Position numbers and translations under genes: made by a program
Assembly (NCBI GenBank): GCA_050010195.1
Contig: JBEKLM010000001.1
Coordinates: forward strand, 129,045-193,044
Length of the DNA stretch: 64,000 nucleotides
Reading direction: 5' to 3'
Origin: Verrucomicrobiia bacterium
GTDB taxonomy: Bacteria > Verrucomicrobiota > Verrucomicrobiia > Palsa-1439
In this document: positions 1 to 52,459 of the stretch, one piece after another
Layout: each line of letters begins with the position of its first letter
Position numbering within the stretch: position 1 is the first letter of the stretch
The notes under the pieces: model-generated
The model's database searches: none
What the model was told of the DNA's origin: nothing
Seen by the model: only the letters and a program-made list of their open reading frames with translations

Positions 1-588
1 CGTGTCCGGGGTGTTGAACCAGATGAACACCGCGCAAACCAGGGCGATACCCGCCGGGACAAAGAAGCACGATCGCCAGCCGAAGCCGAAATAGACGAGG
101 TTGCTGCATAACACCAATATCAGGCCGCCCCCGATGCAGTGCGACGAATTCCAGATCGAAAACTTCGTCGCCATTTCCTTCGGCGGGAACCAGTTCGCCA
201 TCAACCGCGCACAGGGCGGGAACCCCATGCCTTGAAACCAACCGTTAAGCATCCAGATGATGCCCATCGTCAACACCGCGGAACTGAAACCGAACAAGAC
301 GTTCATCAGCGCCGACGCCACGAGGCCGACCGTCAGAAACGCGCGGGAACTCGAGCGGTCGGCGAGAAACCCGTTCCCGAATTTTGAGACGCCGTACAGC
401 AACCCGTGCACCGTCAGAAACAAGCCGAGGTGGGCCTTATCGATGCCGTCCTTTTCCATGTACGGCATGGCGATACTCAGGTTCTTGCGCACGAAATAAA
501 ACGTGGCGTAGCCGATGATGGAAGCAACCAGGACACGGTTCTGCCACGAGTGGTACTTCGCCGAGATCTCCTGCGGATCGGTCAACAT
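1..588 (-). CDS. MFS organophosphate:Pi antiporter, GlpT/UhpC family. Partial: the N-terminal 196 aa are in the window and the gene continues past position 1.
   Basis: Hand translation of the minus strand from the ATG at 588-586 gives MLTDPQEISAKYHSWQNRVLVASIIGYATFYFVRKNLSIAMPYMEKDG...FLADRSSSRAFLTVGL. An in-frame TAG lies just upstream of the start. This is a typical GlpT/UhpC N-terminus. The ORF track does not list it because it runs off the window edge. Confidence 0.6.
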   Translation of the reverse strand, partial: MLTDPQEISAKYHSWQNRVLVASIIGYATFYFVRKNLSIAMPYMEKDGIDKAHLGLFLTVHGLLYGVSKFGNGFLADRSSSRAFLTVGLVASALMNVLFGFSSAVLTMGIIWMLNGWFQGMGFPPCARLMANWFPPKEMATKFSIWNSSHCIGGGLILVLCSNLVYFGFGWRSCFFVPAGIALVCAVFIWFNTPDT

Positions 589-1277
589 CACCGCCGCAGG
601 GGGGTCGGGTTGGAAAACTCCCAGCAACCGGCCGACGACCGGCCGGGACACCGCGCCTGATTCAGATTCGGTTGGCAAGCTCTGGTGCCTCGCTAAGAAA
701 AACAGGTTTCTCTAACCCTTCGTCGAACGCTGACGTCAACCACGTCCACGTGGGATCTCGCCCGCCGAAGCGTGGGCAAGTGGTAACAGAGTGAACGTGG
801 TTCCGCAAGTTCCGAACGCGGAGAATGTCGCGCCCTCGATTTGCTTGCGCGGGGGCGCAAACGTGGCATAACGCCTGATGTATTTTGTCTGGTGTGATCT
901 TGCGCCGACTTCAATCCCGGGATGTTTCGCCGTGGGGTTACTTTTCCGGGTTGCTTTTTTTGAGGGGGATTTTCGGACCGTTCTCCTCAAAACTCGGTCA
1001 CGTGTTTACAAGCACTCGCGAATAGAGCAACGATGCACATCACCACTTGCTCTGCCGAGTTTCGCCCAATCCGCTCTGCCTTGCGCCTGTCGAACTCCGT
1101 TATCCCCTCGACTACCAGGGCGCCTCCGTCCCGCTCCTTTCACCCGGTCACACCAACATGGCTGCCGATGGTCTTCACCATCGCAAGCTCCGGCAAGTCG
1201 ACGAGTTCACCGAGTGCCTTCTTCTCGGAAATGCGCACACCCCCGGGACGAGCGAAGCGATTTGTAGCGGCAGCTTC

Positions 1278-2687
1278 CTACCTGGATACGGGCACCGGTT
1301 CCAACTCGTCCGTGGTTCGCCAGAACCACAGGTACGCGAGTATGACCAGAATGAACCAGGTCAGGTAGCCATAGTCCAGCAACCAGTTGGCAAGCTGTCT
1401 ACCGACCAGGTTTTTCGTCAACACTCCGACGCCAACGCCGATAACCAGCCAGCCGATGCTGGCCGCTGATTTTGGCGCGCGAACCGCACGCGCGGTCAGC
1501 AGCAGGATTGGCAAGATCAGCGAGCAGAGATGGGCCTTGCTCGTCTTGGGTGAAAACAACAGCATCAGACAGAGCACGACAGAGGCATCGTAGCCCGTCA
1601 GGATCAGCGGCGCTTTTGGCCAGCCGTACCAGTGCCCTTGTCGGACTGTTGCCGCGACAATCATCAACAGCGCGGCGATGGCCAGAAACACGATTTGCAC
1701 GCCGCGATGACCCAGTCCCCACAGCAGCGGGCCATGGTCTTCGGCGCCATTAATGAATAACCTTGCCAATAACCCGCCCAGGGATTGGTTCAACTGGGTG
1801 AATTCCTTCCACACGCCCGGCCGCGCGGCGGCGGGGCCATTGGCGACGGCAGGCCTGGCTAACGATTCGATCCACTCGACCGCGTGGAGTTTCGGCAAAG
1901 GACTCGGGAAAATCATCGACGGCGCCAGGTTAAGCACGATGGCGGCAACGACCGCCGCCGTCGCCGCCTTCCATTGCCTCCAGCGCAACAGGAACGGCAC
2001 AAACAATAACGGCGTCGCCTTCAGTCCGATGGCCGCGCCCAAGAGGACCCCCGCGGCGATTGGCCAGCCCATGCCAATCCAGTAGACGGCGGCAAAGCAC
2101 AGCAGCGCGATCATCAGGTCGGTCTGCGCGTTTTCCAGGGGCGACAACAGATGGCGTGCCCCGATCAGCACCGCTGCCCCGACCAGACACACCTGCTGTC
2201 GCGGTGTCAGCGCCGCACGTTCGCGCCGGCTCAACAGCAGCGCCAGATGGATGACCAACACCAGCGCGATTGCCTGTAGTCCGCCCCAAACCCATTGCGC
2301 TGCGCGTTGCGGCATGAACGTCAGCGGCACGCAGACAAAAGCGGCAAAGGGCGGATACGAATACACTTCGTCCGGCACAATCCGGTACAGGTCATCGCCG
2401 TTGCGCAGCCGTTGCGCGGCCAGGTAGTACACCGGGAAATCGCCGCTGCTTCTTCGTCCACCGATGAACAGCGTGGCACTGACCAACAGCGCCACCAAGA
2501 CGAGTTTGTACCAAGGGGAGTTCACGAAGGCGGTCTGATCGGTGTCAGTAGTTTTTTTGACGTGAGTTGTTTTAGGCAACCGCGGGACAATTCTGCGCCA
2601 GCGCTCGAATCTCGTCAAATGCGAAATAAACCTCCTGGCCGCCGCGCCCGTCCCCGCTCGTCCGGTGTGGGCGCCGCGGTCCACCAA
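1278..2687 (-). CDS. Polytopic membrane glycosyltransferase, GT87/DUF2029-like (alpha-1,2-mannosyltransferase-like GT-C fold).
   Basis: 469-aa ORF with about 10 predicted TM helices. It carries the conserved DFPVYYLAAQRLRNGDDLY motif characteristic of DUF2029/GT87. The track start may be a GTG, so the true start is uncertain. Confidence 0.5.
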   Translation of the reverse strand: MVDRGAHTGRAGTGAAARRFISHLTRFERWRRIVPRLPKTTHVKKTTDTDQTAFVNSPWYKLVLVALLVSATLFIGGRRSSGDFPVYYLAAQRLRNGDDLYRIVPDEVYSYPPFAAFVCVPLTFMPQRAAQWVWGGLQAIALVLVIHLALLLSRRERAALTPRQQVCLVGAAVLIGARHLLSPLENAQTDLMIALLCFAAVYWIGMGWPIAAGVLLGAAIGLKATPLLFVPFLLRWRQWKAATAAVVAAIVLNLAPSMIFPSPLPKLHAVEWIESLARPAVANGPAAARPGVWKEFTQLNQSLGGLLARLFINGAEDHGPLLWGLGHRGVQIVFLAIAALLMIVAATVRQGHWYGWPKAPLILTGYDASVVLCLMLLFSPKTSKAHLCSLILPILLLTARAVRAPKSAASIGWLVIGVGVGVLTKNLVGRQLANWLLDYGYLTWFILVILAYLWFWRTTDELEPVPVSR

Positions 2688-2794
2688 GCTCTAGATTTGG
2701 GCGAAGCCCGATACAGCACCGATTATGACCACTTGCTCTACTGGGGTGAACACCCCATATCATCTCTTCATTGTTCCGCATATCTTCCAGGACA

Positions 2795-3127
2795 ATGAAA
2801 GCCGAATTGACAGCAGAAGCCATTCACGTTAACAGCATAGCTCGGTCACGGTTTGACCGTTTATTTGCCGGGAATTGCTTTCTCGAACCAGTCATCGGCA
2901 ACGAAATGGAATGGTTCGTGGACGGCTCGGAGAATTTGCTTGGAACGATTGCGGATGGGCTGTTATTCGACCGTTGGATATATGTCCTCCTGGCAAGGGG
3001 CGGCATAACCGGGTTTCGTATTCTGAGGATGGAATTCGGGGTGTCGACCCGGGATGAAGCAACGGTTCGGTTGCTGCGCATCATGAAGGCATGCGCAACG
3101 CCGACCGCGATAGCGTCGCCGGTATAA
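2795..3127 (+). CDS. Hypothetical small protein (111 aa).
   Basis: ATG at 2795 preceded by AGGA. Non-repetitive sequence MKAELTAEAIHVNSIARSRFDRLF... with no recognisable family. It lies in the gap between two minus-strand genes. Confidence 0.25.
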   Translation: MKAELTAEAIHVNSIARSRFDRLFAGNCFLEPVIGNEMEWFVDGSENLLGTIADGLLFDRWIYVLLARGGITGFRILRMEFGVSTRDEATVRLLRIMKACATPTAIASPV

Positions 3128-3573
3128 ACCAAGACCGCGCAGCGATCCGCCGCGACAAAAGCAGCACAGGGCAGTGTGCCGCTTCAGTTTCCCTCTCGAC
3201 GCCTTTCCCTCACCCGAGGCACGGCTGCGCAGATGGATCGCCCTGGTCTGCACGCACTGGACTCCCCTATGCCCCTTCGGCCCTTACGCTATGCCCCGCG
3301 CATTCGGCCCATACCGACCAACTGCGCCTTACGCCGTCAACAACAACGCTGGCGAACCGCTCAAGACGGCTCCCCGCGCAGGACTCGAGCCGCTCATTCC
3401 GAATCTGTGGAAACTGGTGCCCCCATTTGGCGTAGCGCCCGAATGCGCTGGAAATTGCGCCGTCGGCAAGCATTCGGCGCGTTTGCGACCCAGCACGACA
3501 TGGTCCTGTATCAGTTGCGCCCAAAACGGCGTGGGTGCGGCTACCATCAAAAGGTGGGTATTGCTACGGGCTC

Positions 3574-6500
3574 TTACGGCAATAGGACGCGGACGCGGTA
3601 GAACCGGGTGGGACTGGCCAGTATGTTGGAGTCGGTCATGCTGGTGATGGTGCCGGAGCCGTTGCCGCCGCTGAGGATGTTGGTCTGGCCCGTATCCTGC
3701 CAGCCGCCGTTGGTGTAGCTGCCGTTGGCGGTGCCGGTCATGTAATCCAGCACATTCGTCCGTGATTGGACGCCCGGCACGTAGTTGGTATCCCCGTTGG
3801 CGCCAAGGTAGGTCACGACGACGTTGGTATTGCCCGACAGGAACTGCTCCTGGATGCTGATGACGTGCAGATAGGCCGCCGCGTTGGTGGGGTTGAAGCC
3901 CGCCATGAACTTGTTGGTGTTGCTCATGCCGTCGCCCGTGTAGGAGGCGTTGGGACCACTTGACGCGCCGGTGAGGCCGTAGAACTGCTGCCACTGCGCG
4001 AACGTGTAGGGAGACACGGTAATGGTGCCCATATTGGTGCTGGAGCCGGCCGTGTTGGCCACAATCTGGGTCACCGTGTACGTACCCGGATAATCGTAGG
4101 TGTAGCCCGGGTCCTGCGCGGTGGACGTGCCGGTGCCATCCCCAAACGTCCAACTCCAACTCGTGGGCACGCCGGTCGAGGCATCGTAGAAGTTCACCGT
4201 CAAGGGCGCCGGGCCGCTGGCGGGATTGTTCGTGAAACTCGCCACCGGAGGTGTCGCCGGGTTCGCAACAATCAGGTTCACCTGTCCGGCCGTGTTGGTG
4301 GAGATGGTGTACGTGAAATTCGTGTTGGGCGTCGCGCCGAGGGTGATGCCGCTGTAGGTCAATGCCCCGGTGTAGGTGAACAGCGTGTAGGTGGCGTTCG
4401 AGAACCCGCCGCCATCGAATACATTGAGCGTGCCGGCGAGGGTCAGGTTGCTGGTCACGGCGATCACCGCGGCGTTGGAACCAACCCCGAAGTTCAGCGT
4501 CGATGTGCCGCCCAGATTCAGACTGTTGTTCACCGTGAGGGTGCTGCTGCCCAAGGTGAGCCATGGATCGGAGCCGACCACGTTGGTGTGGGTAATGGCG
4601 GCCTGTGTGTTGAAAAACGCCAGCACGTTGTTGGTCGGCGAAACGGTCAATCCGTCGAGTGTCACCAGATTGGCGACGGGTGTGGTATTGGTCACGGTGA
4701 CCTGGGCGTTGTAGAGCGTCAGCGTGTTGGTGCTGCCATCGGTGGTGAGCTGGGAATTGATGATCTGAATGTCCTGGGCGTTATAGACGTCGAAGGTCTC
4801 TCCGTGGGAGGCGATGTTCACGCCGTACAGCGTGAGGTTGGAAAGGGGCGCTTCCTGGCGGGCCCAAATAACGCCCGTGACATTCACGCCGGCGTTGGCG
4901 GTGGCGGTCAGATTGCTGATGAGAATGTTTTGCCAAAACGGGGTGGTGGTGATGACCGGTTGCGGTCCGTACCCGGCGGCGGTGCTGGGAGTGATGTTGT
5001 TGGGGGTTCCCACCTCGTCGTAGAAGCTCCAGATCAGGATCGGGTAGCCCACGTTGGTCATCGTGATGTCGAGATAGGTGAGATTTTGGACCAACCCGCC
5101 GATATCACGGTCGGACTTCATGCGAATGCCATTCGCCGTGCCGTTGAACGTGCAGTTGCTGACGAGCAGATTGTGGACGCCGCCGGAGGTGATGCTGCCA
5201 ATCGACAGACCGTGGCCGGTGCCGAACGTGCAATTGGAGACGGTGATGTTCGCCGCGGGGCCGGCACTGCCGCCGATCTCGATGTTGTCGTCTCCGTCGC
5301 TGATGGAGCAGTTCTGGATCAGTACGTTGGTCGATTGCAGGTCCATCCCGTCGGTGTTCGGCGAGTTGCCCGGCGTGTTGATCGTCAGATTTTGGATCGT
5401 CAGATTGAGATTGTTTCCCTTCAACACCATATGAAATGTCGGCGGGTTTTGCAGGGTCACGCCTTCGATCAGTATGTTCGAGGAACTGCCCTGGATGTTG
5501 ATAAAATCCGGTCGCTGCGCGGTGGACAGGTTCTGCCCCCACCAGTTCGTCGAACCAAACCCCGCGTGGCCGTCAATCGTTCCGGCCCCGCTGATCTCGA
5601 TGTCGTGAACGCCGTTCGCACTGATGAAGGCCGGCAACGTCCCGGGCCAACTGGACTCGGGGAGCATTTGCAGCATCGCGCCGTCGTCGACCTGCAGATT
5701 AACGCTGCTGGAGAGGGTGATCGGTCCGCTCTCATACGTGCTGAGTGTGCCGGCCGACGGGATCTCGACCGTACCGCCGCCCGCGGCGGCGGCCGCATTG
5801 ATGGTGTTCTGAATCGAGCCGGAGTTGTCTGTCACACCATCCCCGACGGCGCCATAGCTTGTGATCAGGAAGTTGGTGGCCGGAATGACCGGCAGCTGAG
5901 GCGTGTTCGGCAACACGGTGAGGATCGCGTTGGAGCTGGTGGTGGACCCGATCGAGTTGCTGGCGACCAGCGTATAGGTGCCGGCGTTGGTGAACTGCAC
6001 GTTTGAGAGGTTCAGGTTTGATGAGGTCGCGCCGGAAATCGGCGCCCCGTTCTGGTTCCACTGATAGGTAATGGGTGTGGTGCCAATGGCGGTCGCGCTG
6101 AAGCTGGCGTTCCCGCCCGCCATCACACTCACGGACGCCGGTTGCGTCAGAAACAGCGGCGCCACGGGATTAGTATTGACGGTCAGAACCGCATTGGAGC
6201 TGGTGACCGCGCCGACGGGGTTGCTCACGACCACAGAGTAGCTGCCTGCATCGGCGGGTTGAACATTGGTCAGTGTGAATGAGGAACCGGTGGCGCCGCT
6301 GAGCAGCGTGTTGGTGTTCTCATACCACTGGTAACTCAGCGGCTGAGAGCCATTGGCCACCACGGTGAACGTGGCGCTCTGGCCCGGAATGACGGTCTGG
6401 TTTTGCAGGTCGGTGGTGATGAACGGGGCAACATTCGTCACCGCCAATGTCGCCACCACGCTCGTCACCGAGCCGTAGGCATTGGAAATCAGGACCGAGT

Positions 6501-7539
6501 AACCGCCCGCTGCGGCAATCTGAACATTGGTGAGCACCAGCGTAGTGTTGGTGGCGCTGGCCACGGGCGAGTTGGTGTTGTAATACCACTGATAAAACAG
6601 CGGGAGCGTGCCGTTGGGGCCGACGGTGAACGTCGCGGTTTGCCCCGAGGAGAGATCCTGGTCCTGCGGCTGAGTGATGATGGATGGCGCAACGGGCGCG
6701 GACGTGACCTGCACCTCGACTTGTGTAAAGTCGTTTGTGACGGGGGCCTCTGTATTGCCCCCCGGACGATAGGCGATGCCATCAAAACTGAAGTTGGTCG
6801 CCGAGTAGTCGGTCGTCGAATCAGAAAGAGTCGCGCCCGTGACGAAGTTCGACCAGGTGATTGCGATGACCAGCGAAGTAAGGTTCGTCCGTTGGAGAAC
6901 GAACTGCAAACTGTACGGGGTCAGATTGGCAAAGCCGTCAAATGAGTTTGTATTGAGCTGGTCTTTGGCTATTGAAATCCAATCTCCGCTCGCTCCCAGC
7001 AGGCTGCTGTCGGACAGGAGCGTGCGTTTGCGGATATCAATGGGCTGGTTGTCGGCGAACGTCCCGTACACCTTGCCGAACAGCGCGTACCCTTGCACGA
7101 AGAGTCCCTGGGAGCTACTGCTGAACGAGCCGTCGTTCGTCACGCGTAGTGGCACATTGCTTCCGTTGGCAAAATCGAACAACCCGATCCGAAAGCCCTC
7201 CGAAGCGCTCCCGGGAGTTGGCACTCCATTGAAGGTAAAACCGAATGTCGCCGTAAACGTGTCACCAACATTCAACTGGATCGGGGGGCTGTTGGTCGTC
7301 GGAGTGAAATAGGTGATCGCCATGCCAGAGCTGCCCGTCACCTTCATGACCAGAGCGCCGCCGGACGTCGTCAGCGACCCCAAGCTGGAGGCGAACCAGG
7401 CTGACGTGGTCGGCAGGTTTTGACTCGTGCGATTGCCGTTGGTCCAGTTGGTCTGGTTCAGATAAACAGTGGCTTGGCTGGGCAACGCCAGCCCTAAGAC
7501 AGCAACCGAAGCAAGAATGACTATCCCGAATCGCCTCAT
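3574..7539 (-). CDS. Giant secreted multi-domain protein (about 1320 aa). It has an N-terminal lectin-like domain, Ig-like I-set repeats, a GH28 polygalacturonase-type right-handed beta-helix, autotransporter-associated beta-strand repeats and a PKD domain. It ends with the conserved C-terminal domain ...RFYRVRVLLP.
   Basis: Signal peptide MRRFGIVILASVAVLGLALPSQA starts at the ATG at 7539; upstream in-frame starts extend to 7617. GH28 motifs are present in order: NTDG, DGDD, GHG, RMK(RIK). The PKD-like segment is WSWTFGDGTGTSTAQDPGYTYDYPGTYTVT. There are three Ig-like repeats of the form QWYxNTN...TLTNVQ...G.YSV.VSN. Confidence 0.8.
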   Translation of the reverse strand: MRRFGIVILASVAVLGLALPSQATVYLNQTNWTNGNRTSQNLPTTSAWFASSLGSLTTSGGALVMKVTGSSGMAITYFTPTTNSPPIQLNVGDTFTATFGFTFNGVPTPGSASEGFRIGLFDFANGSNVPLRVTNDGSFSSSSQGLFVQGYALFGKVYGTFADNQPIDIRKRTLLSDSSLLGASGDWISIAKDQLNTNSFDGFANLTPYSLQFVLQRTNLTSLVIAITWSNFVTGATLSDSTTDYSATNFSFDGIAYRPGGNTEAPVTNDFTQVEVQVTSAPVAPSIITQPQDQDLSSGQTATFTVGPNGTLPLFYQWYYNTNSPVASATNTTLVLTNVQIAAAGGYSVLISNAYGSVTSVVATLAVTNVAPFITTDLQNQTVIPGQSATFTVVANGSQPLSYQWYENTNTLLSGATGSSFTLTNVQPADAGSYSVVVSNPVGAVTSSNAVLTVNTNPVAPLFLTQPASVSVMAGGNASFSATAIGTTPITYQWNQNGAPISGATSSNLNLSNVQFTNAGTYTLVASNSIGSTTSSNAILTVLPNTPQLPVIPATNFLITSYGAVGDGVTDNSGSIQNTINAAAAAGGGTVEIPSAGTLSTYESGPITLSSSVNLQVDDGAMLQMLPESSWPGTLPAFISANGVHDIEISGAGTIDGHAGFGSTNWWGQNLSTAQRPDFINIQGSSSNILIEGVTLQNPPTFHMVLKGNNLNLTIQNLTINTPGNSPNTDGMDLQSTNVLIQNCSISDGDDNIEIGGSAGPAANITVSNCTFGTGHGLSIGSITSGGVHNLLVSNCTFNGTANGIRMKSDRDIGGLVQNLTYLDITMTNVGYPILIWSFYDEVGTPNNITPSTAAGYGPQPVITTTPFWQNILISNLTATANAGVNVTGVIWARQEAPLSNLTLYGVNIASHGETFDVYNAQDIQIINSQLTTDGSTNTLTLYNAQVTVTNTTPVANLVTLDGLTVSPTNNVLAFFNTQAAITHTNVVGSDPWLTLGSSTLTVNNSLNLGGTSTLNFGVGSNAAVIAVTSNLTLAGTLNVFDGGGFSNATYTLFTYTGALTYSGITLGATPNTNFTYTISTNTAGQVNLIVANPATPPVASFTNNPASGPAPLTVNFYDASTGVPTSWSWTFGDGTGTSTAQDPGYTYDYPGTYTVTQIVANTAGSSTNMGTITVSPYTFAQWQQFYGLTGASSGPNASYTGDGMSNTNKFMAGFNPTNAAAYLHVISIQEQFLSGNTNVVVTYLGANGDTNYVPGVQSRTNVLDYMTGTANGSYTNGGWQDTGQTNILSGGNGSGTITSMTDSNILASPTRFYRVRVLLP

Positions 7540-7898
7540 CCTACATGCCCTTTCCAAACGAAACACTACGGAATCCATGTTCTTACAAGGGAATCTGGGA
7601 CAGTTGCGTCCGAGCAATGACTGGTGGGCTGATAACCGCGACCACCGGGCGCTACCGTCTCACGATTCTTTTCCCGTACTCCCTGTTTAACATATCATCC
7701 GCTGCTCCAGACTGCAATTCGACACAGAGAGCCAAAACGGTCATGGACAGAAAATGCGCTGTAAAACACGGGAACATATGCAGGGAAGACACTTATTACC
7801 AGCTTACCCTGCCATGACAGAACCCATGCTGACCACGCTCCCTGACGGGTCCTGCTCCTTCCCCGTTACGAAGACATCTCCACACGACGTGCCTCGCT

Positions 7899-10800
7899 TT
7901 AGGGAACCAAGCGGACACGATAGTAACGGGATGGATTGTTCGTGGCTCCGCCCGAGTCAACATAATTGGTCGAGGTATCGCCACCAGTACCGGGCAGGAC
8001 CGTCTGCGAAGGCGGGAGGTCCGCAAAGTTGTTGGTGTTGTATCCGCCGTTGGCGTCCCCGCTGGTGACCTGCACCGCATTCGTATGTCCGCCCGCCGTC
8101 GTCCACGTAATCACGACATTGGTGCCCTGCGGCACGACCGAAACGATTCGGAACAGCGAGGCGCTATTGGTCGGATCCAGCCCCACTAGGAATTGGTTGG
8201 TGTTACTCATCCCCTTGCCGAGCGGATCAGCATTCGCTGCCGCTTGCGGACAGATCGCCAAGTTGGTGCAGGCAAAGTACTGCAATTGCCAGCACGTAAA
8301 CGGATCTCCCGGCGTCACACTCGCGCTGCCGTTCATCGTTGCCGTGCACCCGCTGGTCACGTTGGACGCGATCACCGTGTACGTGCCCACCGCCGTTTGG
8401 TCCGTAAACGAAATCGCGCTGCCCGTGCCGGCAACCAACGCACCGGTGGGACTACCGTTCAATTCCAATTGGTAATCCGCGGTCGATTCCGACCCATCCA
8501 AGCCGACTGTCACGCCGCCGCCAGCAGCGCAGTAGGAGCCGCCGCCGGTCACATTGAATGTCGCCGGACCAGCGCTGACCGTCAGTGTGGCCCCGCCGGA
8601 GGTCGCCGGCGGACTGCACGTGCCGCTGACCACACAATCGAAGCTCGCTCCCGAATCGCCAACCGCCGCATTCGAAATCGTCAAGCTCGCTGTGCCCGAG
8701 CCGCTGATGGTGCCGCCGTTGCCGATATTGGAGCCGTTCTTCTGCCATTGATAACTCAGACCCGCGCCGCTGGTTGAGACGGTGAAACTTGCCGACCCGC
8801 CAGCACAGACGGTCTGGGGCGAGGGACCTGAGAGGATGCCCGGGGCGGCATTGACCGCGACGGACAAACTGGAGCCGTTGCCGGTACACCCATTGGCATT
8901 GGCCGGCGTCACCGTCACGCTACCGGCGATCGAACCCCAATTGACCGTGATGGACGTGCTCCCCTGACCACTGATCGTCGCTCCCGACGGCACAGCCCAC
9001 GTGTACGTCGTCGCGCCGTTGACGCTGGAAATCGAATAGCCCACGCCGGTCTGTCCCGCGCAGACGGTGGTCGGGCCGCTGATCGAACCCGCCGCACCCA
9101 CGCCGGTGATGGTGACCGCCAAACTACTGGACGCACCGCTGCAACTGCCGTTGGTGGGGATGACCGTCACATTGCCGCTGGTAGCCGAGCAAGAGTAATT
9201 GACGGTGATCGAGGTCGTGCCCAGACCGCTGGCAACGGACGCTCCTGATGGCACGGTCCACGTGTAGCCGGTTGCGCCACTGACACTGGAGATTGAGTAC
9301 GCCACCCCGCTGCTCCCCGCGTTGACCGAGCTGGACCCGGTGATGGAGCCTGCCGAGCCGACGGAGCAGGGTGTCGCAACGATCAGGTTCACCTGACCGG
9401 ACGTGTTGGTGGAAACCGTGTAGGTGAAGCTCGGATTAGGCGTCGAGCCAACCGTCAGGCCGTTATACGTCAATGTTCCCCCGTAGGTGAACAGTGTGTA
9501 CGCCGTGTTGGTGAATCCGCCGGCATTGGCGACATTCAGCGTGCCGCTCAAGGTCAAATTGCCGGTCACCTCCGTTTTCGTGGCATTTGTCCCCAAGCCG
9601 TAATTCAGCGTGGATGATCCGCCGAGGCTCATGCTGTTGCTCACGGTGAGCGTGCTGCCGGCCAATGTAAGCAACGGATTCGCGCCGAAAGCACCGCTGT
9701 CAGCCGTCTCGGCCAGACCATTGAACAGGGACAGCACGGTGTTGGATGGCGCCCACAATCCGGTCATCGTCACGGTATTGGCGTTGGGGGCGCTATTGGT
9801 AACGGTGAATTGTGCATTATAGAGTGTCAATGTGTTCGTGCTTGTGTTGGGCGCAGTGAGGTTGGAATTAATGATCTGGACGCCGCGGACGTTATACATG
9901 CAGAAGGTTTTCGTCGGGGCGGAGATGTTCACCTTGCACAGCGTGAAGTTGCTGATGGGCGCCTGCGGCAACCCCCAGAACCACCCGGCAACGTTTCCGC
10001 CGATGGTGTACGCGGTCAAATTGCTGACAGTAATGTTTTCGAAGATCGGGGTGTGCGAGCCGCTATCGCTGAACGTGGCTGCGTCCCCCGGGGTATAGTC
10101 GAAGCTGCTTGTTGGGGCTCCGACGGTATTGTAAGTGCTGTAAAACGCGATGGCAAAATTCACGTTGCTCATGACGAGATCCTTATACACGCAGTTTTGG
10201 ATCACGCCCCCGCGGTCGGTGTCCGATTTGCCCTTGATGCCGTACTCCGTCCCGTTCCAGACGCAATTGCTCACGAGAAGATTGTTGACCCCGCCCTCGG
10301 TGTCGCTGCCGATCGACAGGCCGTGTCCGATGCCGAAAGTGCAATTGGACACGGTGATGTTGTTGGCCGGAGCGCCATTGCCTCCAATCTCAAGGTTGTC
10401 GTCTCCGTCGCTGATGTAACAGTTGCGGATCACCATGTTCGTCGAGGAGATGTCCATCCCGTCGGTGTTTGGTGAGGCCGGAGTATTGATGGTCATGTTC
10501 TGGATCGTGACATTGCCATCGCTGTTTTTCAGGTAGAGGGTGAACGTCGGTGGGTTTTGCAGTGTCACACCTTGGATCAGAATCCTCACCGTATGGTCGT
10601 ACTCTATAAAATTCGGTCGCGAACAGCCGCAGGTCCACCAGCCAGAGGACCCCTGGCCGTCGATCGTGCCGCCACCGCTAAGTTCGCAATCATGGAGCGT
10701 GTTTCCTTCCATGAAAGTGGTCGTGCCGGACCAACTGCTCATCGGCAACATCTGGAGCATCGCCCCGGCGTCGATCTGCAGATTGACACTGCTCTTCAGG

Positions 10801-11150
10801 GTGATAGGCCCGGCCAGATACGTGCTCAACGTGCCGTTGGCTGGGATCTCTACCGTGCCGCCGCCGGCCGCGTTGGCTGCAGTGATGGCGTTGTTGATCG
10901 CGGTCGCGTTGTTTGAGACGCCGTTGCCATACGCGCCGAAGCTCAATACATTGAAATTGGTGGTGGGAATGATCGGCAAATCCGGGTCGGCGTGCCCGGA
11001 CTTGGCGACTGCCAGCAACAACAAGACGGCCCAAGCGGTCGTCCTCCGCCAAGAAGCGGCAGGAAACCGCCTGTGCGACCGTTGATTGTTTTGCACTTGG
11101 AGCTTCACCGTGCGCCTCGCCGAACACCGCGTTCCCGTATGCTTTGTCAT
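7899..11150 (-). CDS. Giant secreted GH28-family beta-helix protein (1083 aa) with beta-strand repeats, tandem Ig-like/PKD-like domains and the conserved C-terminal domain ...NNPSRYYRVRLVP.
   Basis: Signal peptide TTAWAVLLLLAVAKSGHA. GH28 motifs NTDG, DGDD, GHG and KGK are present. Repeated about 88-aa Ig-like units carry GxGTTSITVNYSCSATSGNVTV. The C-terminal module is near-identical to that of the gene at 34330-39720. Confidence 0.8.
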   Translation of the reverse strand: MTKHTGTRCSARRTVKLQVQNNQRSHRRFPAASWRRTTAWAVLLLLAVAKSGHADPDLPIIPTTNFNVLSFGAYGNGVSNNATAINNAITAANAAGGGTVEIPANGTLSTYLAGPITLKSSVNLQIDAGAMLQMLPMSSWSGTTTFMEGNTLHDCELSGGGTIDGQGSSGWWTCGCSRPNFIEYDHTVRILIQGVTLQNPPTFTLYLKNSDGNVTIQNMTINTPASPNTDGMDISSTNMVIRNCYISDGDDNLEIGGNGAPANNITVSNCTFGIGHGLSIGSDTEGGVNNLLVSNCVWNGTEYGIKGKSDTDRGGVIQNCVYKDLVMSNVNFAIAFYSTYNTVGAPTSSFDYTPGDAATFSDSGSHTPIFENITVSNLTAYTIGGNVAGWFWGLPQAPISNFTLCKVNISAPTKTFCMYNVRGVQIINSNLTAPNTSTNTLTLYNAQFTVTNSAPNANTVTMTGLWAPSNTVLSLFNGLAETADSGAFGANPLLTLAGSTLTVSNSMSLGGSSTLNYGLGTNATKTEVTGNLTLSGTLNVANAGGFTNTAYTLFTYGGTLTYNGLTVGSTPNPSFTYTVSTNTSGQVNLIVATPCSVGSAGSITGSSSVNAGSSGVAYSISSVSGATGYTWTVPSGASVASGLGTTSITVNYSCSATSGNVTVIPTNGSCSGASSSLAVTITGVGAAGSISGPTTVCAGQTGVGYSISSVNGATTYTWAVPSGATISGQGSTSITVNWGSIAGSVTVTPANANGCTGNGSSLSVAVNAAPGILSGPSPQTVCAGGSASFTVSTSGAGLSYQWQKNGSNIGNGGTISGSGTASLTISNAAVGDSGASFDCVVSGTCSPPATSGGATLTVSAGPATFNVTGGGSYCAAGGGVTVGLDGSESTADYQLELNGSPTGALVAGTGSAISFTDQTAVGTYTVIASNVTSGCTATMNGSASVTPGDPFTCWQLQYFACTNLAICPQAAANADPLGKGMSNTNQFLVGLDPTNSASLFRIVSVVPQGTNVVITWTTAGGHTNAVQVTSGDANGGYNTNNFADLPPSQTVLPGTGGDTSTNYVDSGGATNNPSRYYRVRLVP
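8190..9300. repeat. Dispersed repeat copy A, about 1.1 kb. It matches 34640-35760 at roughly 90% nucleotide identity. Content is the C-terminal Ig-like/beta-sandwich module of a giant pectinase.
   Basis: Spurious plus-strand ORFs are nearly identical in both places: 8554-8751 versus 35003-35200, and 7966-8475 versus 34466-34924. The encoded minus-strand proteins align over more than 330 aa. Confidence 0.6.
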
Positions 11151-11594: not shown

Positions 11595-12320
11595 CTAGTC
11601 GCCCATAAACCAAGTGTTTTGACTCTGGGAAATACTCTTGCACTGGGTGATGACAGCCTGGATTTCGACATATTCCGCATGCCAGTCTGCACGGAGTGTG
11701 TTTATTCCCCCACCATGCCGGTTCATTATTTCTGAAGTCGAAAAGTCGTTCGGCAATTTCGTTTGGTCAAACTCATATTCTTTCCCATCGGTATCACACA
11801 GCACCAGAAATTCAGAGGGCTTGGGCACTGTATCGACACGGTAAAAATATGCAGAGCTATTCGCGGGATTGGGGTTCATGGGTGAGTATGCCCCATTCTG
11901 AAGCAAGTTGGGCTCGTTTTGGGCGAAGGTATATTGTGCCGCATTTGGAGGCATAACACCAGGCAACCCCCCAAGCTGGCTCTCGCGCATCGGACACGTT
12001 CTCATGTCATAAATCTTGCTGAGCGACCCCGAACTCCCCGCCATGTAACGCAGGTAGGCATTCGTGCACTCAGCGCCACTGTAATCTTGAAACGTAGTCG
12101 ATTGCCAATGCACAGGATCATAGAGATAACCGCCGTAATCGTCGGCATACATGGACATCGCGAGGCCCCATTGTTTCAGTCGGGCAAGGCAATTGGCCTG
12201 TTGCGCCTTCGACCGCGCCTTGTTCAGCGCCGGCAACAACATCGCCGCCAGGATGCCGATAATCGCAATGACCACCAGTAGCTCAATGAGGGTAAACGCT
12301 TTGTTCCTGCTCTGTTTCAT
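11595..12320 (-). CDS. Prepilin-type N-terminal cleavage/methylation domain protein of the H-X9-DG (DUF1559) family; T2SS pseudopilin-like.
   Basis: Class III signal [24 protein letters not shown] follows the Met at 12320. C-terminal motif [14 protein letters not shown] matches H-X9-DG. Upstream in-frame ATGs extend to 12416. Confidence 0.75.
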
Positions 12321-13336
12321 TTGCATCGGATCGGCTGCGCCTCCGGTTGTAAAACTATTTACAATAATCTTGCCCCGTCTTCGGTTCATACTCAGACCGC
12401 GCTTGTTCCTGGTCATTGTCGGTCCGCTCTATACTGCCGAAAGCTTACTTTCTTTCAGAGACTTTGCAAGAAATATGCTGTCGCCGGAGATCCGATTTCA
12501 AGAGCCTGTTCCCTCAGCGATTAGGTATGCTACCCCCGATGCGCCTTTGACAAACCGCTTCGGGAGACCAGTATCTTGGGAGAAGGCGTTACGGTTCACA
12601 GCACCCGGCGTCGCAGGCCACGTGTTAAAATGATGGTGCCGCCCGTGTCCTTGGCGACATGAGCCAACAGGGCGGTGTGGTGTGTCGCCGACAGGGATCG
12701 AACCGTAGCCCTGCTTCGTATTGCTAGTGACCGAAATGTGAAACACCACGACTTCGATCCCCCTCCGTGACTGATCGAACCTGCTTTCACTTTTGTATGT
12801 CATCCAATCAGAATGTTTCCGTTGGGAGTGTTAACGTGTCAAGGGCCAGACTCGTGAAAGGCGGACAAGCGACCGAAAACAACGCGGCGGCGGATTCAGT
12901 GAGGCAGGATTTTTCCGGCTGCAGCTTGCCATTGCACAACCCGCCCAATTGGCTTCGGCGCATCCAACCGCCTTAGACTCTGACTCCGGGGCTTTGAAGC
13001 AATGATTACGGCATCACGAACTGCTCTCCTTACTTGCAATCGGTTGCACGAACAGTTATGGAACCGACCCAACTCCCCCAATATACTTCTTGACAAATTA
13101 ATGCCAGCGTAAGGCCGCGTGACTTCCGAAAGTGTCTGTATTGCCGTCAGACCGTGGGATGTGCGTGCTGTCACCCGTGAAGATTGCCGCTAGTGTACTT
13201 GTCGGCAAATTCCGGTAAAATGGCATTCAACCGTTTGCAAAATGCGCCAGTCCGGCGAGGTTCAGGCCTGGTCTCAACTCTGAGAGCTTCCCCTGTCAGT
13301 GATTGCATATGCTAGGCAAGGAACGGTGAATAGGCA

Positions 13337-13475: not shown

Positions 13476-15404
13476 ATGAGATTCACGATGAATCAGACGG
13501 GAGCAGTCGTGCGCGCATTTCAAAACAATCCTACTAACTCAGTTTCAAAATTTTCTTTGAGGTCACGATCTGCGAAACATATCACCGCCGGAGCGATTGG
13601 CCTCGGCTTGTTGTTCATCGTCGTCGCCAATAGCCAGGCGCAGTCCACGAATTACTGGTGGACGGGTGCCGATAACAATGGCATTTGGGAGGATGCCAAT
13701 AATTGGGTGCTTACGAACGGCGTAGCGGCGACCACGTATCCGGCCAACCCAGTTACGCAACCGCCAGGATCGGAGACCGATGTTGCCATATTTACGAATT
13801 CCGGGACGTACGCGGTAACTGTCACCACTGTCGGCAACCTCAACATCCAAAGCAACTTTTTCAATAACGCGTCGAACAGCACGGCCACGGTCACGCTGAC
13901 CGTGAACAACAGCGGAACGTTCTACTTGCAGGGCGGTGGCACTGACTTTGAAATTGCCGATGGAGTTGACAGCACCTCGATCGTTTATCTGGCGTCTTCC
14001 CCTTCCCCGAACAACGGCCTGATAGTCAAGGGAACGGGCTTTATCGTCGGCCACGATGGCGTTGGCACATTGATCTTCACCAATGGATTTATTAACACCT
14101 CGGCCAGTGTTGTCGTGGACGTGGGATCTGGCGGGGGAAACGGAACGGTCATAATCAGCGGACCGAACACGTATTGGGAAGCCTACCAGTTTGCCATCGG
14201 CGACACGAACGCCAGTTATGGCAATTCCGTCATCATCTCGAATTCAGCGAGCCTTACGGCGGCCAGCACCTTTAGAATCGGCAGCAGCTCCACCACCGGC
14301 TCCAGCAACTGCCTGTTCGTCGTGACCGACGGCGGGTATTTCGCGGTCAACGGAGGCTCGCCGTTGACTGTCGGCAATCGAGGCGGCACGCTTTCTGCCG
14401 CTTCGGCATCGTACAACAATACCGTCATCGTTGGGAATGGCGGCGTTATCAATATTCCCGACCACAGCATTGTCGTGGGAAACTCCGCGACCATGGAATC
14501 GGGAATCAGTTGCAGCAGTTGCGCCGCCGGCGGCACCACCGCCACAGGCAACTTCTTTATAGTCGAGGCCGGCGGTGTGGTGAGTAACGCCACCCAGATC
14601 GCCATCACGACCAGCAACACCCTCGCATTGTACGGTGGGATTTTTGGCGGCGGAAGCCTGACCTACCTCGGAAGCATTACCAACTACGGTGTGTTTCAGG
14701 GCTGGGGCACCATTGTCGGCAGCCTGAATACCGGCAGCAACGTCTTCAACAACGCGCTCGGTTTCACGGCCGTAAGCAACCAGGTCGGAGCGTTGGTTCT
14801 GAGCAATGGCTTCACCACGGCCACGAACACGGTATTGCAAATCTCGTTGGGCACAAATTATTATCCCATTGCGGTCGGATTGGGCCAGGCGGATCCGCCT
14901 GCGAGCGCCTTGGTCTCCAACAACGACCTCGTCCTTAACGGGATCATCAACTTCGTCAACTCGGGCGGGTTCACCGACACCACCTACACGTTGTTTACGT
15001 ATCCAACGTCCCTCGTGGGTGTCAATAGCAACAAGTTCATTTGCGCTCCGGTGATCGGGACAGTTCCAAATCCCAGCCTCACCTACGCAATCAGCACCAG
15101 CACACCCGGTCAGATCAATCTGATCGTTGGCTGCACGAACTGTGCGCCGCCAGTGACGCCAGTGCCGTCGATCACGTCGATCACCCGTGTCAACAGCGGC
15201 CACGACATCTTGCTCCAGTGGAACACGAACGGTACGACGAACAACCACGTGCAGGTCACCACGGGCACGGCGAACGGCAGCTACTCGGCGAGCGGATTCG
15301 CAAACCTGGCCAATATTGTCGTCACCACCGCCACGACCAATTATGTGGATGTGGGTGGAGCAACGAACACCCCGTCCCGGTACTACCGCATCTCGTCACC
15401 GTAA
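13476..15404 (+). CDS. Secreted repeat protein (642 aa) with autotransporter-associated beta-strand repeats and the conserved C-terminal domain ...NTPSRYYRISSP. No catalytic domain was recognised.
   Basis: Signal-like segment HITAGAIGLGLLFIVVANSQAQS. Repeat GFTDTTYTLFTYPTSLVGVNS...LTYAISTSTPGQINLIV. The C-terminal about 90 aa resemble the C-termini of the four giant enzymes. Confidence 0.65.
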   Translation: MRFTMNQTGAVVRAFQNNPTNSVSKFSLRSRSAKHITAGAIGLGLLFIVVANSQAQSTNYWWTGADNNGIWEDANNWVLTNGVAATTYPANPVTQPPGSETDVAIFTNSGTYAVTVTTVGNLNIQSNFFNNASNSTATVTLTVNNSGTFYLQGGGTDFEIADGVDSTSIVYLASSPSPNNGLIVKGTGFIVGHDGVGTLIFTNGFINTSASVVVDVGSGGGNGTVIISGPNTYWEAYQFAIGDTNASYGNSVIISNSASLTAASTFRIGSSSTTGSSNCLFVVTDGGYFAVNGGSPLTVGNRGGTLSAASASYNNTVIVGNGGVINIPDHSIVVGNSATMESGISCSSCAAGGTTATGNFFIVEAGGVVSNATQIAITTSNTLALYGGIFGGGSLTYLGSITNYGVFQGWGTIVGSLNTGSNVFNNALGFTAVSNQVGALVLSNGFTTATNTVLQISLGTNYYPIAVGLGQADPPASALVSNNDLVLNGIINFVNSGGFTDTTYTLFTYPTSLVGVNSNKFICAPVIGTVPNPSLTYAISTSTPGQINLIVGCTNCAPPVTPVPSITSITRVNSGHDILLQWNTNGTTNNHVQVTTGTANGSYSASGFANLANIVVTTATTNYVDVGGATNTPSRYYRISSP

Positions 15405-15711
15405 CGGAAGAAACAGTGGTATATTTTGGAGAATTCAAGCAGCGATCAGCGCAGCCGCACGGAAATGAAAGGTATGACAGCGAATAACAAGTGCCTTCGT
15501 TCACGACTCGGTGAACACCCGGCGGCTGCGCTCTTAATTTGCAGTAGGAATCTGGTGTAATGAAATCTCTCGTCTGGAGAGACGAGAGATGCCCCGCGGT
15601 TCGGGGTCAGAGGGCAAGAAGTAGTAGAAACGTGGAGAATAGGTGTGTGAGGGCTCTAGAGGGTCAAGCACACAAGCAAAACGAGGTATTAAAGAAGGAG
15701 TGGTGAGGGTC

Positions 15712-16731
15712 ATGAAGATAAGGAATCAATGGGTAGTCATGGTAGCCACGATTGCGGCTGCCTCAGCATGCGTCCTGTTCAGCCGGCCGGCGTCAGCGCA
15801 ATATCCGGGACCGGGGCCGACGAATATTTTCGTCGATAATTTCGACAACGGCAGCACAATCAACCAGACGAGCACACCGGGGGGAACACCCGCGGCGTCG
15901 TCGACCAGCTATGATATGACGTCGACCAAGGGCGCCACCGCCTCGATCGCAAGCGGTGATCTGAACATGGAACTGCCATCGTCGAGTTCCACCTTCTTGG
16001 AAGCGGCGGCGATCTTTACGAGCACACCGGTCGTGCTGCAGAACACGGGAGACTACATCGACTTCATTCTCGAGTTCACGGACACCGCCAACCTGACGCC
16101 CAGCAACACTCAAAATGAGTTGGGAATCGGGCTGTTTAATTCCGGCGGGGTTTCCCCGATTACGACCAATATGGGAACCTTCACGGCAACCAGCGGCGGA
16201 GTCCAGGGTTGGACGGGTTATAACAGCCAGATATACGGTTCTGGCGGCACCTCATCGAAAATGAATCAGCGCGCGGCCCAGGCCGTCTCGGCCGGAAGTC
16301 AGGACTTGCTGTTTAATGATGTCGCTTCCAGCACCTACGACAATCCAAAGGGTTCAAACCTTGTCAATGGCGCCTCGGCGTCCACCTTGGCTCTGACAAA
16401 CGGCGCCCAGTACACCGAGGATTTCCGGATTACGCTAACTGGCGCAAGCCAGATCGCTGTGACCAATACGCTGTTTGCGGGTCTCGGCACTGGCGGCACG
16501 GTCGAATATGCCTACGGCGGCTTGAGCAACGTCCTCCCGGCCACAGTCGAATTCGATTCCTTGGCTTTTGGGTTCTTGGAAAAGTCCAGCCTCGTTCAAA
16601 CCCAGGACACCAGTTTGATCGAGATCACCACCGGGAATATCGATAATATCCCCGAGCCATCCACGTGGATGTTGCTCGCGTCTGGCTTCGCGATGATCGT
16701 CGGGCTCGTTGCTCGCCGTCGTCGTAGCTGA
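15712..16731 (+). CDS. PEP-CTERM sorting-domain protein (340 aa).
   Basis: ATG at 15712 with AAGGAG 12 nt upstream. Signal peptide MKIRNQWVVMVATIAAASACVLFSRPASAQ. C-terminus NIPEPSTWMLLASGFAMIVGLVARRRRS is a PEP motif plus TM helix plus basic tail. Confidence 0.75.
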   Translation: MKIRNQWVVMVATIAAASACVLFSRPASAQYPGPGPTNIFVDNFDNGSTINQTSTPGGTPAASSTSYDMTSTKGATASIASGDLNMELPSSSSTFLEAAAIFTSTPVVLQNTGDYIDFILEFTDTANLTPSNTQNELGIGLFNSGGVSPITTNMGTFTATSGGVQGWTGYNSQIYGSGGTSSKMNQRAAQAVSAGSQDLLFNDVASSTYDNPKGSNLVNGASASTLALTNGAQYTEDFRITLTGASQIAVTNTLFAGLGTGGTVEYAYGGLSNVLPATVEFDSLAFGFLEKSSLVQTQDTSLIEITTGNIDNIPEPSTWMLLASGFAMIVGLVARRRRS

Positions 16732-19146: not shown

Positions 19147-19197
19147 TTCCACACAACCTCGTATTTGTTGAACGAATAACTCCCGCCTGCCTGCCAA

Positions 19198-19495
19198 AGG
19201 TCAAGTCAAAATGGGGCACTGGCACGTTTCTTCGCAGGGCAGCGATGGTGCGCGGCCTCGGACATGCTGTAGCTTCGTCCCATCTGCGGGAGTTCGCCGC
19301 TCCGGAGGCTTGTAATCCGATATTTCCCATAAGATTTACACCCCGCGACTGTCGCGTGGACCATAAACTCTGACCATCGCTCTCAGCATCACTTTTGACA
19401 ATGCTGACAAGCCGATTCTGAGCATTGGTCCTCGCACCGAGTTCGGATTCAGCGTTGCCGTCGTCGTCCGTCCGCTCCGGAACCAATTTCACCCT
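19198..19495. promoter_or_regulatory. Divergent intergenic region between two TMTC-like genes; presumed bidirectional promoters.
   Basis: 298 bp sit between the minus-strand start at 19146/19197 and the plus-strand start at 19496. No ORF was seen. Confidence 0.25.
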
Positions 19496-21436: not shown

Positions 21437-21462
21437 GAGCAGGCTTGGGAAGTGGCACATGA

Positions 21463-25041: not shown

Positions 25042-25062
25042 CACCAGACGGCCACCACAACC

Positions 25063-26657: not shown

Positions 26658-26684
26658 GACAACATCACGAGCAGAGGATAAATA

Positions 26685-30600: not shown

Positions 30601-30607
30601 TCCCCGG

Positions 30608-52458: not shown

Positions 52459-52459
52459 A

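Follow-up and report, generated by a model that had tools for sequence, protein, structure and literature searches.

Verrucomicrobiota are abundant polysaccharide degraders in soil and peat, with almost no biochemistry behind their genomes. In Bacteroides, GH28 enzymes are lipoproteins or periplasmic proteins of ~450 amino acids (aa), not giants with immunoglobulin (Ig) arrays. The closest described systems to the locus considered here are the pectin polysaccharide utilization loci (PULs) of Bacteroides thetaiotaomicron, in which GH28 paralogues (BT4146, BT4153 and BT4155 in one locus) lie together with lyases, esterases and uronate catabolism, and two solved pectinases, the 376-aa single-domain endo-polygalacturonase PehA of Pectobacterium carotovorum (1BHE) and the alkaline pectate lyase PelN of Paenibacillus sp. 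0602 (5GT5). Here, we examine a stretch of 64,000 nucleotides (nt) from a Verrucomicrobiia bacterium (contig JBEKLM010000001.1, positions 129,045 to 193,044; hereafter the window, whose own numbering is used throughout), in which four giant minus-strand open reading frames (ORFs), abbreviated G1 to G4, encode three GH28 proteins and one polysaccharide lyase family 1 (PL1) protein. We consider it probable that these giants are competent exported pectinases that carry accessory cassettes and a lineage-specific C-terminal tail acting as a tag, and the interest of the finding rests mainly on this tail as a candidate tag. The locus likewise combines GH28 paralogues, a lyase, an esterase and uronate catabolism, and NCBIfam models built on the B. 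thetaiotaomicron GH28 enzymes give the next-best partial matches to the window enzymes; unlike in the Bacteroides PULs, no SusC/SusD pair flanks the giants.

The giants comprise G1 (3574-7617, 1347 aa from a TTG at 7617, or 1321 aa from the ATG at 7539 that is the public gene-call start), G2 (7899-11150, 1083 aa; the public gene call starts 42 codons later and gives 1041 aa), G3 (34330-39720, 1796 aa) and the PL1 pectate lyase giant G4 (40815-44516, 1233 aa), and compared with PehA they add 700-1400 aa of accessory modules. An earlier interpretation of the bare DNA (the sequence-only reading) had given the giants as 1083 to 1796 aa long and had placed a canonical GH28 enzyme of ~450 aa in the same locus, both of which are borne out, the latter by a 455-aa protein at 46027-47394 (minus strand); its three GH28 giants and one PL1 giant within 40 kb together span, as measured, 40.9 kb.

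The evidence for catalytic competence comes from the beta-helix domains themselves. In Pfam searches, Glyco_hydro_28 (PF00295) lies above its gathering score in G1 (E 6.5e-51; aa 580-975, positions 4693-5880, minus strand), G2 (E 2.8e-39; aa 56-445), G3 (E 3.2e-45; aa 672-1065) and the small enzyme (E 1.2e-58), and each of these four domains contains the NTD, GDD and GHG motifs once apiece, in the forms NTDGMD/GDDN/GHG in G1 and G2 and NTDGVD/GDDD/GHG in G3. In G1 the motifs are found at 5341-5358 (NTD), 5284-5295 (GDD), 5194-5217 (GHG) and 5113-5130 (GIRMKS), all on the minus strand. The RIK segment reads RMK in G1, RCK in G3 and RIK in the small enzyme; in G2 it is GIKGKS (10224-10241, minus strand), with Lys in place of the Arg. 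Among solved structures, PehA is closest to the G2 catalytic domain (E 3e-25); in the alignment, NTD, GDD and GHGxSIGS are in register, and the R/K-x-K segments lie opposite each other, GIKGKS in G2 against GLRIKS in PehA. The sequence-only reading had described NTD, DD, GHG and RIK-like motifs in all of these proteins, which stands for the first three in all three GH28 giants, and falls short at the RIK Arg of G2. We extended the motif census to 90 GH28-bearing homologs (650-1956 aa, median 1363). All four window domains and nearly all of these homologs retain the NTD Asp, both residues of the DD pair, the His and the RIK Lys, and the RIK Arg is replaced by Lys, as in G2, in approximately 9 of the 94 aligned GH28 domains and by His in 4 of the 94. 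Co-occurrence of the four segments is reportedly typical of polygalacturonases and not of rhamnogalacturonases, according to the GH28 survey of Markovic and Janecek. Overall, the motifs support G1, G2 and G3 as catalytically competent GH28 hydrolases of the polygalacturonase type, as opposed to adhesin scaffolds. With respect to the substitution in G2, the RIK Arg and Lys are reported to bind the substrate carboxylate in work on Aspergillus niger PGII, and as a separate observation, the Arg-to-Lys change may mark an altered +1 subsite.

In G4, Pectate_lyase_4 (PF00544) scores 43.9 bits against a gathering cutoff of 24 in a PL1 domain at aa 556-1015, and the protein aligns over the whole chain of PelN (E 2.8e-132). 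The residues known to matter in PelN are the Ca2+ ligands D152, D174 and D178 and the catalytic-site residues K245, R276 and R281 (PMC8091735), and all six, counted along the alignment, are conserved in G4, in motifs at 42402-42425, 42321-42347, 42111-42137 and 41994-42044 (minus strand). G4 differs from PelN in a single extra residue within the R-x-P-R-L-R motif, which becomes R-C-V-P-R-L-R, and in the modules on either side, namely a lectin-fold domain, four Ig domains and the tail. The alignment thus supports G4 as a PelN-like PL1 pectate lyase with intact active-site residues.

These data bear on the view that the beta-helices are non-catalytic adhesin scaffolds derived from pectinases, an outcome that the sequence-only reading had tied to substitution of the GH28 Asp triad or of the PL1 Arg/Lys. 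This view would account for the adhesin-like repeats of the giants, their very low Lys and Glu and high Ser, Thr, Gly and Asn content, the RIK substitution in G2 and the interruption of one related giant by a stop codon and a frameshift. However, the Asp triad and the His are intact in G1, G2 and G3, where the Lys is kept as well, and purifying selection evidently maintains the same residues across the homologs; none of the PL1 residues is substituted, with the equivalents of K245, R276 and R281 all present in G4; and the genes sit in a complete galacturonate catabolic locus. Because the catalytic motifs are intact, the scaffold view is unsupported, and we regard it as very improbable. The sequence-only reading is supported in describing active, secreted pectinases that are decorated with adhesin-type beta-sandwich repeats.

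The metabolic context of the giants is provided by a block for galacturonate and unsaturated-uronate catabolism that lies between them (23950-34251, plus strand; kdgK, kduI, kduD, an MFS (major facilitator superfamily) transporter gene, uxaE and uxaC), with an AraC regulator inside it (30608-31489, minus strand). A BD-FAE-type esterase (47431-48306, minus strand) and a KDPG aldolase gene, eda (48067-48984, plus strand), follow the small GH28; the latter overlaps the esterase ORF, and its true start is probably downstream of the overlap. Judged from its gene content, the locus is coherent for the use of homogalacturonan through both the hydrolytic (UxaC/UxaE) and the lyase (KduI/KduD) routes. 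In the mechanism that we propose, G1 to G4 would be made with a Sec-type signal peptide and exported, would presumably cross the outer membrane and would attack homogalacturonan outside the cell; the small GH28 and the esterase would trim the products of the hydrolases and the lyase, which would then enter through the MFS transporter and be catabolized by UxaC/UxaE and by KduI/KduD/KdgK/Eda. The Ig I-set domains, the PKD and PKD_6 domains and the unclassified beta-sandwich repeats would serve as spacers or adhesive modules, and the module that follows the GH28 domain would cap the beta-helix.

Export is supported by the N-termini of all four giants, which resemble signal peptides, end in A-x-A-type sites and are followed by no other hydrophobic segment. 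The composition of the giants (Lys 0.6-1.6%, Glu ~1-2%, Ser+Thr+Gly+Asn ~39-48%) contrasts with that of the small GH28 (an ordinary 5.5% Lys and 3.7% Glu), which may reflect an extracellular location of the giants and a periplasmic one of the small enzyme; the 455-aa enzyme would act as a partner in the periplasm or on oligomers. Lys and Glu are similarly scarce in the 84 tail carriers of at least 300 aa described below. The sequence-only reading had further proposed multivalent pectinases tethered to the cell surface. We find no sequence basis for tethering in known anchors: the giants contain no PEP-CTERM motif, C-terminal transmembrane segment, lipobox, autotransporter barrel or C-terminal domain (CTD) of the type IX secretion system (T9SS), inspection by eye showed no Cys at the cleavage region, and there was neither a second hydrophobic segment nor an anchor-type profile match. 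Each protein has one catalytic domain and at most one lectin-like domain, such that multivalency is a conjecture. The C-terminal PEP motif, transmembrane helix and basic cluster of PEP-CTERM/exosortase substrates, absent from the giants, are present in two other window proteins. We also note that the N-terminus of G2 (10989-11150) has two Arg-Arg pairs (SHRRF and SWRRTTAW) before its hydrophobic core and is loosely twin-arginine-like, and that the public start of G2 lies inside this core and would truncate the signal peptide.

The accessory modules were delimited by iterative profile searches within the window, together with Pfam for I-set/Ig_3, PKD and PKD_6, all of which are well above threshold across the four giants. 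From the N-terminus, G1 consists of a signal peptide, a ConA-like domain, three Ig domains, GH28, cap, PKD and tail; G2 of a signal peptide, GH28, cap (aa 496-600), two PKD_6 (594-760), Ig (770-852), a beta-repeat (851-946) and tail (947-1083); G3 of a signal peptide, a beta-rich N-terminal region (aa 42-481), two Ig, GH28, cap, three PKD_6, Ig, beta-repeat and tail (1654-1796); and G4 of a signal peptide, a ConA-like domain (aa 35-285), three Ig, PL1, Ig and tail (1100-1233). In G1, on the minus strand, the ConA/legume-lectin-fold domain corresponds to 6703-7467 (aa 51-305), the three Ig I-set domains to 5932-6687 (aa 311-387, 398-474 and 487-562), the cap to 4240-4554 (aa 1022-1126; “..TYTLFTY..GQVNLIV”, common to G2, G3 and the ORF at 13476-15404) and the PKD domain to 4015-4251 (aa 1123-1201). 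The Ig I-set arrays and PKD-like domains of the sequence-only reading were thus recovered, the former in all four giants (three in G1, one in G2, three in G3 and four in G4) and the latter in the GH28 giants (one PKD in G1, two PKD_6 in G2 and three in G3).

An N-terminal lectin-like domain, which had been ascribed to the giants in general, is present at the fold level in G1 and in the PL1 giant G4 and is absent from G2, which opens directly with GH28, and from G3, in which a distinct beta-rich region of 440 aa takes its place. The G1 and G4 domains are ~50% identical to each other and have no Pfam or NCBIfam match at E ≤ 10, Lectin_legB included. An AlphaFold2 (AF2) model of the G4 domain (aa 35-282; 32 sequences) reached a predicted local distance difference test score (pLDDT) of 91.5 and a predicted template modeling score (pTM) of 0.91, and the top Foldseek matches of this model in the PDB are legume lectins (peanut lectin with E 1.2e-7, probability 1.0 and template modeling score ~0.5), with ERGIC-53/Emp46 and an alginate lyase also among the 77 matches at E ≤ 1e-3; sequence identity to the matched lectins is 9-15%. 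The domain probably binds glycans. It has ~50 database relatives, including stand-alone proteins of ~290 aa, some with PEP-CTERM. The two PEP-CTERM proteins beside the giants (15643-16731, plus strand, and 44835-45650, minus strand) have beta-rich bodies that are otherwise unassigned and that resemble jelly-roll or lectin-type domains by eye only; a hidden Markov model of the lectin-fold domain gave no match to either at E ≤ 0.01, and we do not claim homology to it.

The autotransporter-associated beta-strand repeats of Verrucomicrobia type that the sequence-only reading had reported could not be recovered. No PATR (PF12951/TIGR02601) was found in any window protein, either with Pfam at E ≤ 0.01 on whole proteins and E ≤ 10 on segments or with NCBIfam at E ≤ 1 and E ≤ 10. 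We also considered the G3 N-terminal region and the module after GH28 as PATR or autotransporter sequences; neither had a Pfam or NCBIfam match even at E ≤ 10, and BLAST against PATR-positive homologs matched the cap only and not the PATR repeat. In three homologs with G1-like architecture (P0183, P0229 and P0234), a single PATR repeat of 30 aa lies between GH28 and the cap, and such homologous giants, among the PATR proteins of Verrucomicrobiota, carry it right before the cap, whereas the window proteins retain the cap with no recognizable PATR. The idea that the giants are type V (autotransporter-like) surface proteins, in which PATR-type repeats would bring the enzyme across the outer membrane or onto it, draws on these homologs, on the presence of PATR in 23 of 87 tail carriers and on the W-rich motif with which the N-terminal region of G3 opens, which we take to be typical of PATR-type proteins. 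We nevertheless find it highly doubtful, given the absence of PATR from the window proteins at permissive thresholds, the absence of an autotransporter beta-barrel domain in Pfam searches and the nature of the C-terminal module of ~135 aa, which is modeled as a five-strand sandwich with helices and not as the 12-strand barrel that classical type Va autotransporters have at this position. Other modules recur as well: the GH28-plus-cap unit reappears as a block in many representatives; the G3 N-terminal region is 30% identical to that of the ORF at 13476-15404, where it runs straight into the cap; and the G2 beta-repeat (aa 851-946) recurs up to ~40 times in proteins of 3000-7000 aa, which fits the “adhesin-like” description.

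Comparison of the giants with each other indicates how they were assembled. The lectin-fold and three-Ig cassette is shared between G1 (aa 34-619) and G4 (aa 19-598) at 50% identity, despite their different catalytic domains. G2 aa 596-1020 (8090-9365) and G3 aa 1303-1728 (34537-35814), which form a PKD_6-Ig-beta-repeat cassette, are 83.7% identical at the nucleotide level over 1286 nt, and the two copies lie 26 kb apart, while the GH28 parts of the same two proteins do not align by blastn. This pattern suggests recent cassette exchange or gene conversion. Two PKD_6 units within G3 have 81% DNA identity. The sizes of the giants are explained by exchange of cassettes and by tandem duplication among the paralogues, with large size coming from shuffled accessory cassettes and not from additional catalytic units.

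A homologous module of ~135 aa, the tail, closes all four giants and a fifth ORF, 13476-15404 (plus strand), which encodes a secreted, non-catalytic protein of 642 aa with no Pfam hit, and exactly these five window ORFs end in [RK][YF][YF]R[IVL] followed by zero to six residues and the stop codon. The G1 tail (3577-4005, minus strand; aa 1205-1347) comprises a TSP3-like motif and a beta-sandwich and ends in RFYRVRVLLP directly before the stop; the G2 tail (7902-8312, minus strand) was used as the query for the family analysis and for the AF2 model. In the fifth carrier, a signal peptide, a G3-like beta-rich region and the cap precede a beta-sandwich that ends in RYYRISSP, and the TSP3-like motif is missing. 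The alignment gives the same layout for the family, with the TSP3-like motif first, a variable sandwich next and an almost invariant end (P-[SA]-R-[YF]-Y-R-[IV]-R-L-[VG]-P, with Pro as the last residue in 82 of 87 carriers). The TSP3-like motif reads DPDGDGMSNTNEF in many homologs and DPLGKGxSNTNQF in the window, and its loop occurs in two states, an acidic DPDGDG in many homologs versus DPLGKG, DPSGKG or YTGDG in the four window giants, with loss of acidic ligands from the window tails; in this organism, the tail may no longer bind Ca2+. The AF2 model of the tail (pLDDT 84) has two short helices and a five-strand sandwich. The tail has no Pfam or NCBIfam match, and a profile search of PDB sequences gave nothing at E ≤ 1.

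A protein search with the G2 tail gave 90 relatives, almost all without a Pfam assignment, of which the named ones belong to Verrucomicrobiia or Verrucomicrobiota. A metagenome scan with the tail gave 401 relatives, from which 75 loci were kept; these contain 133 tail-carrying ORFs, and the module ends no more than three residues from the stop codon in 131 of them. Comparable redundancy of GH28 enzymes occurs in Bacteroides pectin PULs, and in the present case the density of giants, which the sequence-only reading had called unusual, is typical of the clade: 35 of the 75 related loci hold 2-5 carriers within at most 20 kb. To describe the passengers, we ran Pfam on 87 non-redundant, 5'-complete carriers (98-2398 aa). 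Their catalytic domains are GH28 (28), PL1 (5), PL4-type (~5), PL11 (3), PL9 (2) and the pectinesterase family CE8 (5), with GH5 (2), GH30 (1), GH2 (1), Endonuclease_NS (2) and Phosphoesterase (2) in addition, and their accessory domains include PKD (32), PATR (23) and Ig (~18). A signal-like N-terminus is present in 81 of the 84 carriers of at least 300 aa, and any other transmembrane-like segment in only two of the 84. Because its passengers are so diverse and the module is strictly terminal and strongly conserved, we infer that the tail is a sorting, retention or assembly/docking tag and not a substrate-binding module.

What kind of tag this might be is best discussed against two known systems. 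The T9SS CTD of Bacteroidota is likewise a small beta-sandwich, found at the C-terminus of many secreted hydrolases and adhesins that are unrelated to each other but confined to one lineage, and the tail could correspondingly be a secretion or sorting signal for a lineage-specific outer-membrane export or attachment machinery. Its strictly C-terminal position and near-invariant, Pro-ending terminus, its small beta-sandwich fold, the diversity of its cargo, nearly all of it with signal peptides, and the restriction of every named match to Verrucomicrobiia or Verrucomicrobiota are all in line with this, as is the recurrence of a prepilin-type gene beside the carriers. However, no window protein matches the profiles of Por_Secre_tail, TIGR04183 or the type B CTD, no machinery was identified in the loci that were covered, a T9SS is not known in Verrucomicrobiota, and the prepilin-like family is very abundant in genomes of the Planctomycetes-Verrucomicrobia-Chlamydiae (PVC) group, so that its adjacency is weak evidence; in this specific form, the explanation appears unlikely. 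In dockerin-bearing cellulosomal enzymes, a common C-terminal module with a Ca2+-loop-type motif is likewise found on diverse, clustered carbohydrate-active enzymes (CAZymes), and a dockerin-like tail would allow the enzymes to dock on a surface scaffold or on each other in a cell-associated “pectinosome”, which would supply the tethering proposed in the sequence-only reading. The presence of one conserved C-terminal module on varied polysaccharide-degrading enzymes clustered in loci follows the dockerin pattern, the tail starts with a bacterial TSP3-type Ca2+-loop motif (DPDGDG in homologs, DPLGKG in the window), and a non-catalytic carrier (13476-15404) lies in the same locus. The tail nevertheless has one degenerate TSP3-like loop and not a duplicated F-hand, the Ca2+-ligand Asp residues are gone from the window copies, there is no match to Dockerin_1 (PF00404) or to a cohesin profile, the searches turned up neither a cohesin-like partner nor a scaffold candidate containing repeats of a receptor module, no structure matches the fold specifically, and the module also occurs on nucleases and phosphoesterases. 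We therefore consider docking of this kind quite unlikely.

A more conservative account would have the giants as freely diffusing secreted enzymes, in which Ig, PKD and tail only stabilize or solubilize as spacers and play no part in targeting. CAZymes often contain modular spacers, the folds of these modules are generic beta-sandwiches, and the giants have no known anchor motif, all of which agree with this account; the extreme conservation of the last 10 residues and the strictly terminal position of the tail are, however, hard to explain for a passive spacer, and the occurrence of one tail on passengers unrelated to each other points to a common process. We see this account as possible, if doubtful. 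Taking the tail as a tag more broadly, we would put forward tentatively that it is an undescribed C-terminal sorting/assembly domain of a Verrucomicrobiia lineage, with a TSP3-like loop and a beta-sandwich that has the near-invariant ending PSRYYRVRLVP-COOH; it would mark dozens of secreted hydrolases per genome for a dedicated export, surface-retention or multi-enzyme docking pathway and be a functional counterpart of T9SS CTDs or dockerins. With similar reserve, the giant pectinases could be seen as a class of cargo within a new system for surface display.

Several points weigh against our interpretation of the giants as competent, exported and tagged pectinases, and should be kept in mind. 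The Arg-to-Lys change in the RIK segment of G2, a conservative one, is the sole catalytic-motif deviation in the window. NCBIfam equivalog scores reach at most 126 bits against cutoffs of 500-800, so no specificity is assigned, and neither endo versus exo mode nor action on homogalacturonan versus substituted galacturonan is readable from the sequence. The ConA-like fold occurs also in lyases and glucanases, which tempers the assignment of glycan binding. With respect to the tail, the best Foldseek match in the PDB has E 0.018 and the matches are assorted Ig/FN3 sandwiches; the passenger census is biased, since the loci were retrieved with the tail closest to that of G2 and are mostly pectin loci; and both the tag function and the route of export are deductions. 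Finally, all relatives of the giants come from metagenome-assembled genomes (MAGs) or metagenomes.

Taken together, the data suggest that one lineage builds its extracellular pectinases from a shared kit, with a lectin-fold domain, Ig/PKD spacers and a universal tail on GH28, PL and carbohydrate esterase (CE) domains. Should the tail prove to be a tag for sorting or docking, it would offer a simple means of recognizing the secreted degradome of uncultured Verrucomicrobiia by sequence and a handle on their outer-membrane export or display machinery, and would allow cell-associated enzyme display to be tested in Gram-negative soil bacteria outside Bacteroidota. If it is not a tag, the locus encodes an ordinary though large set of modular pectinases.

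In terms of novelty, the enzymes are already in databases but uncharacterized, while four of their modules (tail, cap, lectin-fold domain and beta-repeat) lack annotation; our literature search found no paper on giant verrucomicrobial GH28 enzymes or on the tail. From Met27 onward, G1 is 100% identical to MGD0057892.1 ([quoted passage not shown]), and its JGI label is “polygalacturonase/PKD repeat protein”; in JGI metagenome 3300038619, it is encoded on the 282,802-nt contig Ga0427940_0000017. Its best 120 matches include ~70 clusters of GH28 proteins of 1000-1950 aa with Ig arrays, some of which also have RCC1 and FN3 domains, and they are automatically annotated as GH28 or polygalacturonase. 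This architecture is thus not a rare one; Verrucomicrobiota MAGs contain dozens of GH28 relatives of 1200-1950 aa. The window UxaC has its best genome match in a MAG of an uncultured Verrucomicrobiota (79%), followed by Verrucomicrobia MAGs that include subdivision 3 and Limisphaerales, the groups in which the nearest named MAGs fall. A G4-like protein with 71% identity in its PL1 part is encoded by a MAG of Limisphaerales (isolate palsa_1371, locus L005). In the closest genome relative (L001), positions 207-3230 encode a 1007-aa protein with cap and tail and without a Pfam-recognizable catalytic domain, directly followed by a stand-alone lectin-fold protein (3317-4354). A further giant, with RCC1, fn3, lectin-fold, Ig, GH28, cap and tail (L157, ENA ERZ19978090 c_000000022269, 1586-6414), is called as three genes, with an in-frame TGA exactly at a conserved Trp of the lectin-fold domain and a frameshift before the cap; the gene is found on eight contigs, and the TGA and frameshift are identical across independent assemblies, which would fit either a pseudogene or recoding.

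Two apparent tail-related families were discarded. Among stand-alone “tail-only” proteins of 100-240 aa, at least those of the P0017 cluster represent a piece of a giant gene that has been disrupted, and a 185-aa “family” in eight loci is an antisense shadow ORF over the conserved tail. The most recurrent non-CAZyme neighbor of the carriers is a prepilin-type protein, found in 11 of the 75 tail-bearing loci and each time 61-1065 bp from a carrier; its counterpart in the window, a protein with a prepilin-type N-methylation motif (11595-12416, minus strand), is encoded 445 bp upstream of G2 and in the same orientation. Chance may account for this adjacency: PVC genomes contain very many members of the family, and more than half of the sequence of those loci is taken up by carriers. 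Long ORFs of up to 472 aa overlap the giants in other frames or strands (4588-6006, plus; 3329-4564, minus; 41367-42542, plus) and are probably shadow ORFs of DNA with 60% GC; across G1 and G2, the public gene calls list no overlapping ORFs. Elsewhere in the window, three adjacent proteins of ~650-700 aa (17104-23529; one on the minus and two on the plus strand) have C-terminal TPR arrays preceded by N-terminal regions of ~400 aa without Pfam hits, and further PMT_2-like/TPR and glycosyltransferase genes occupy 49615-56531.

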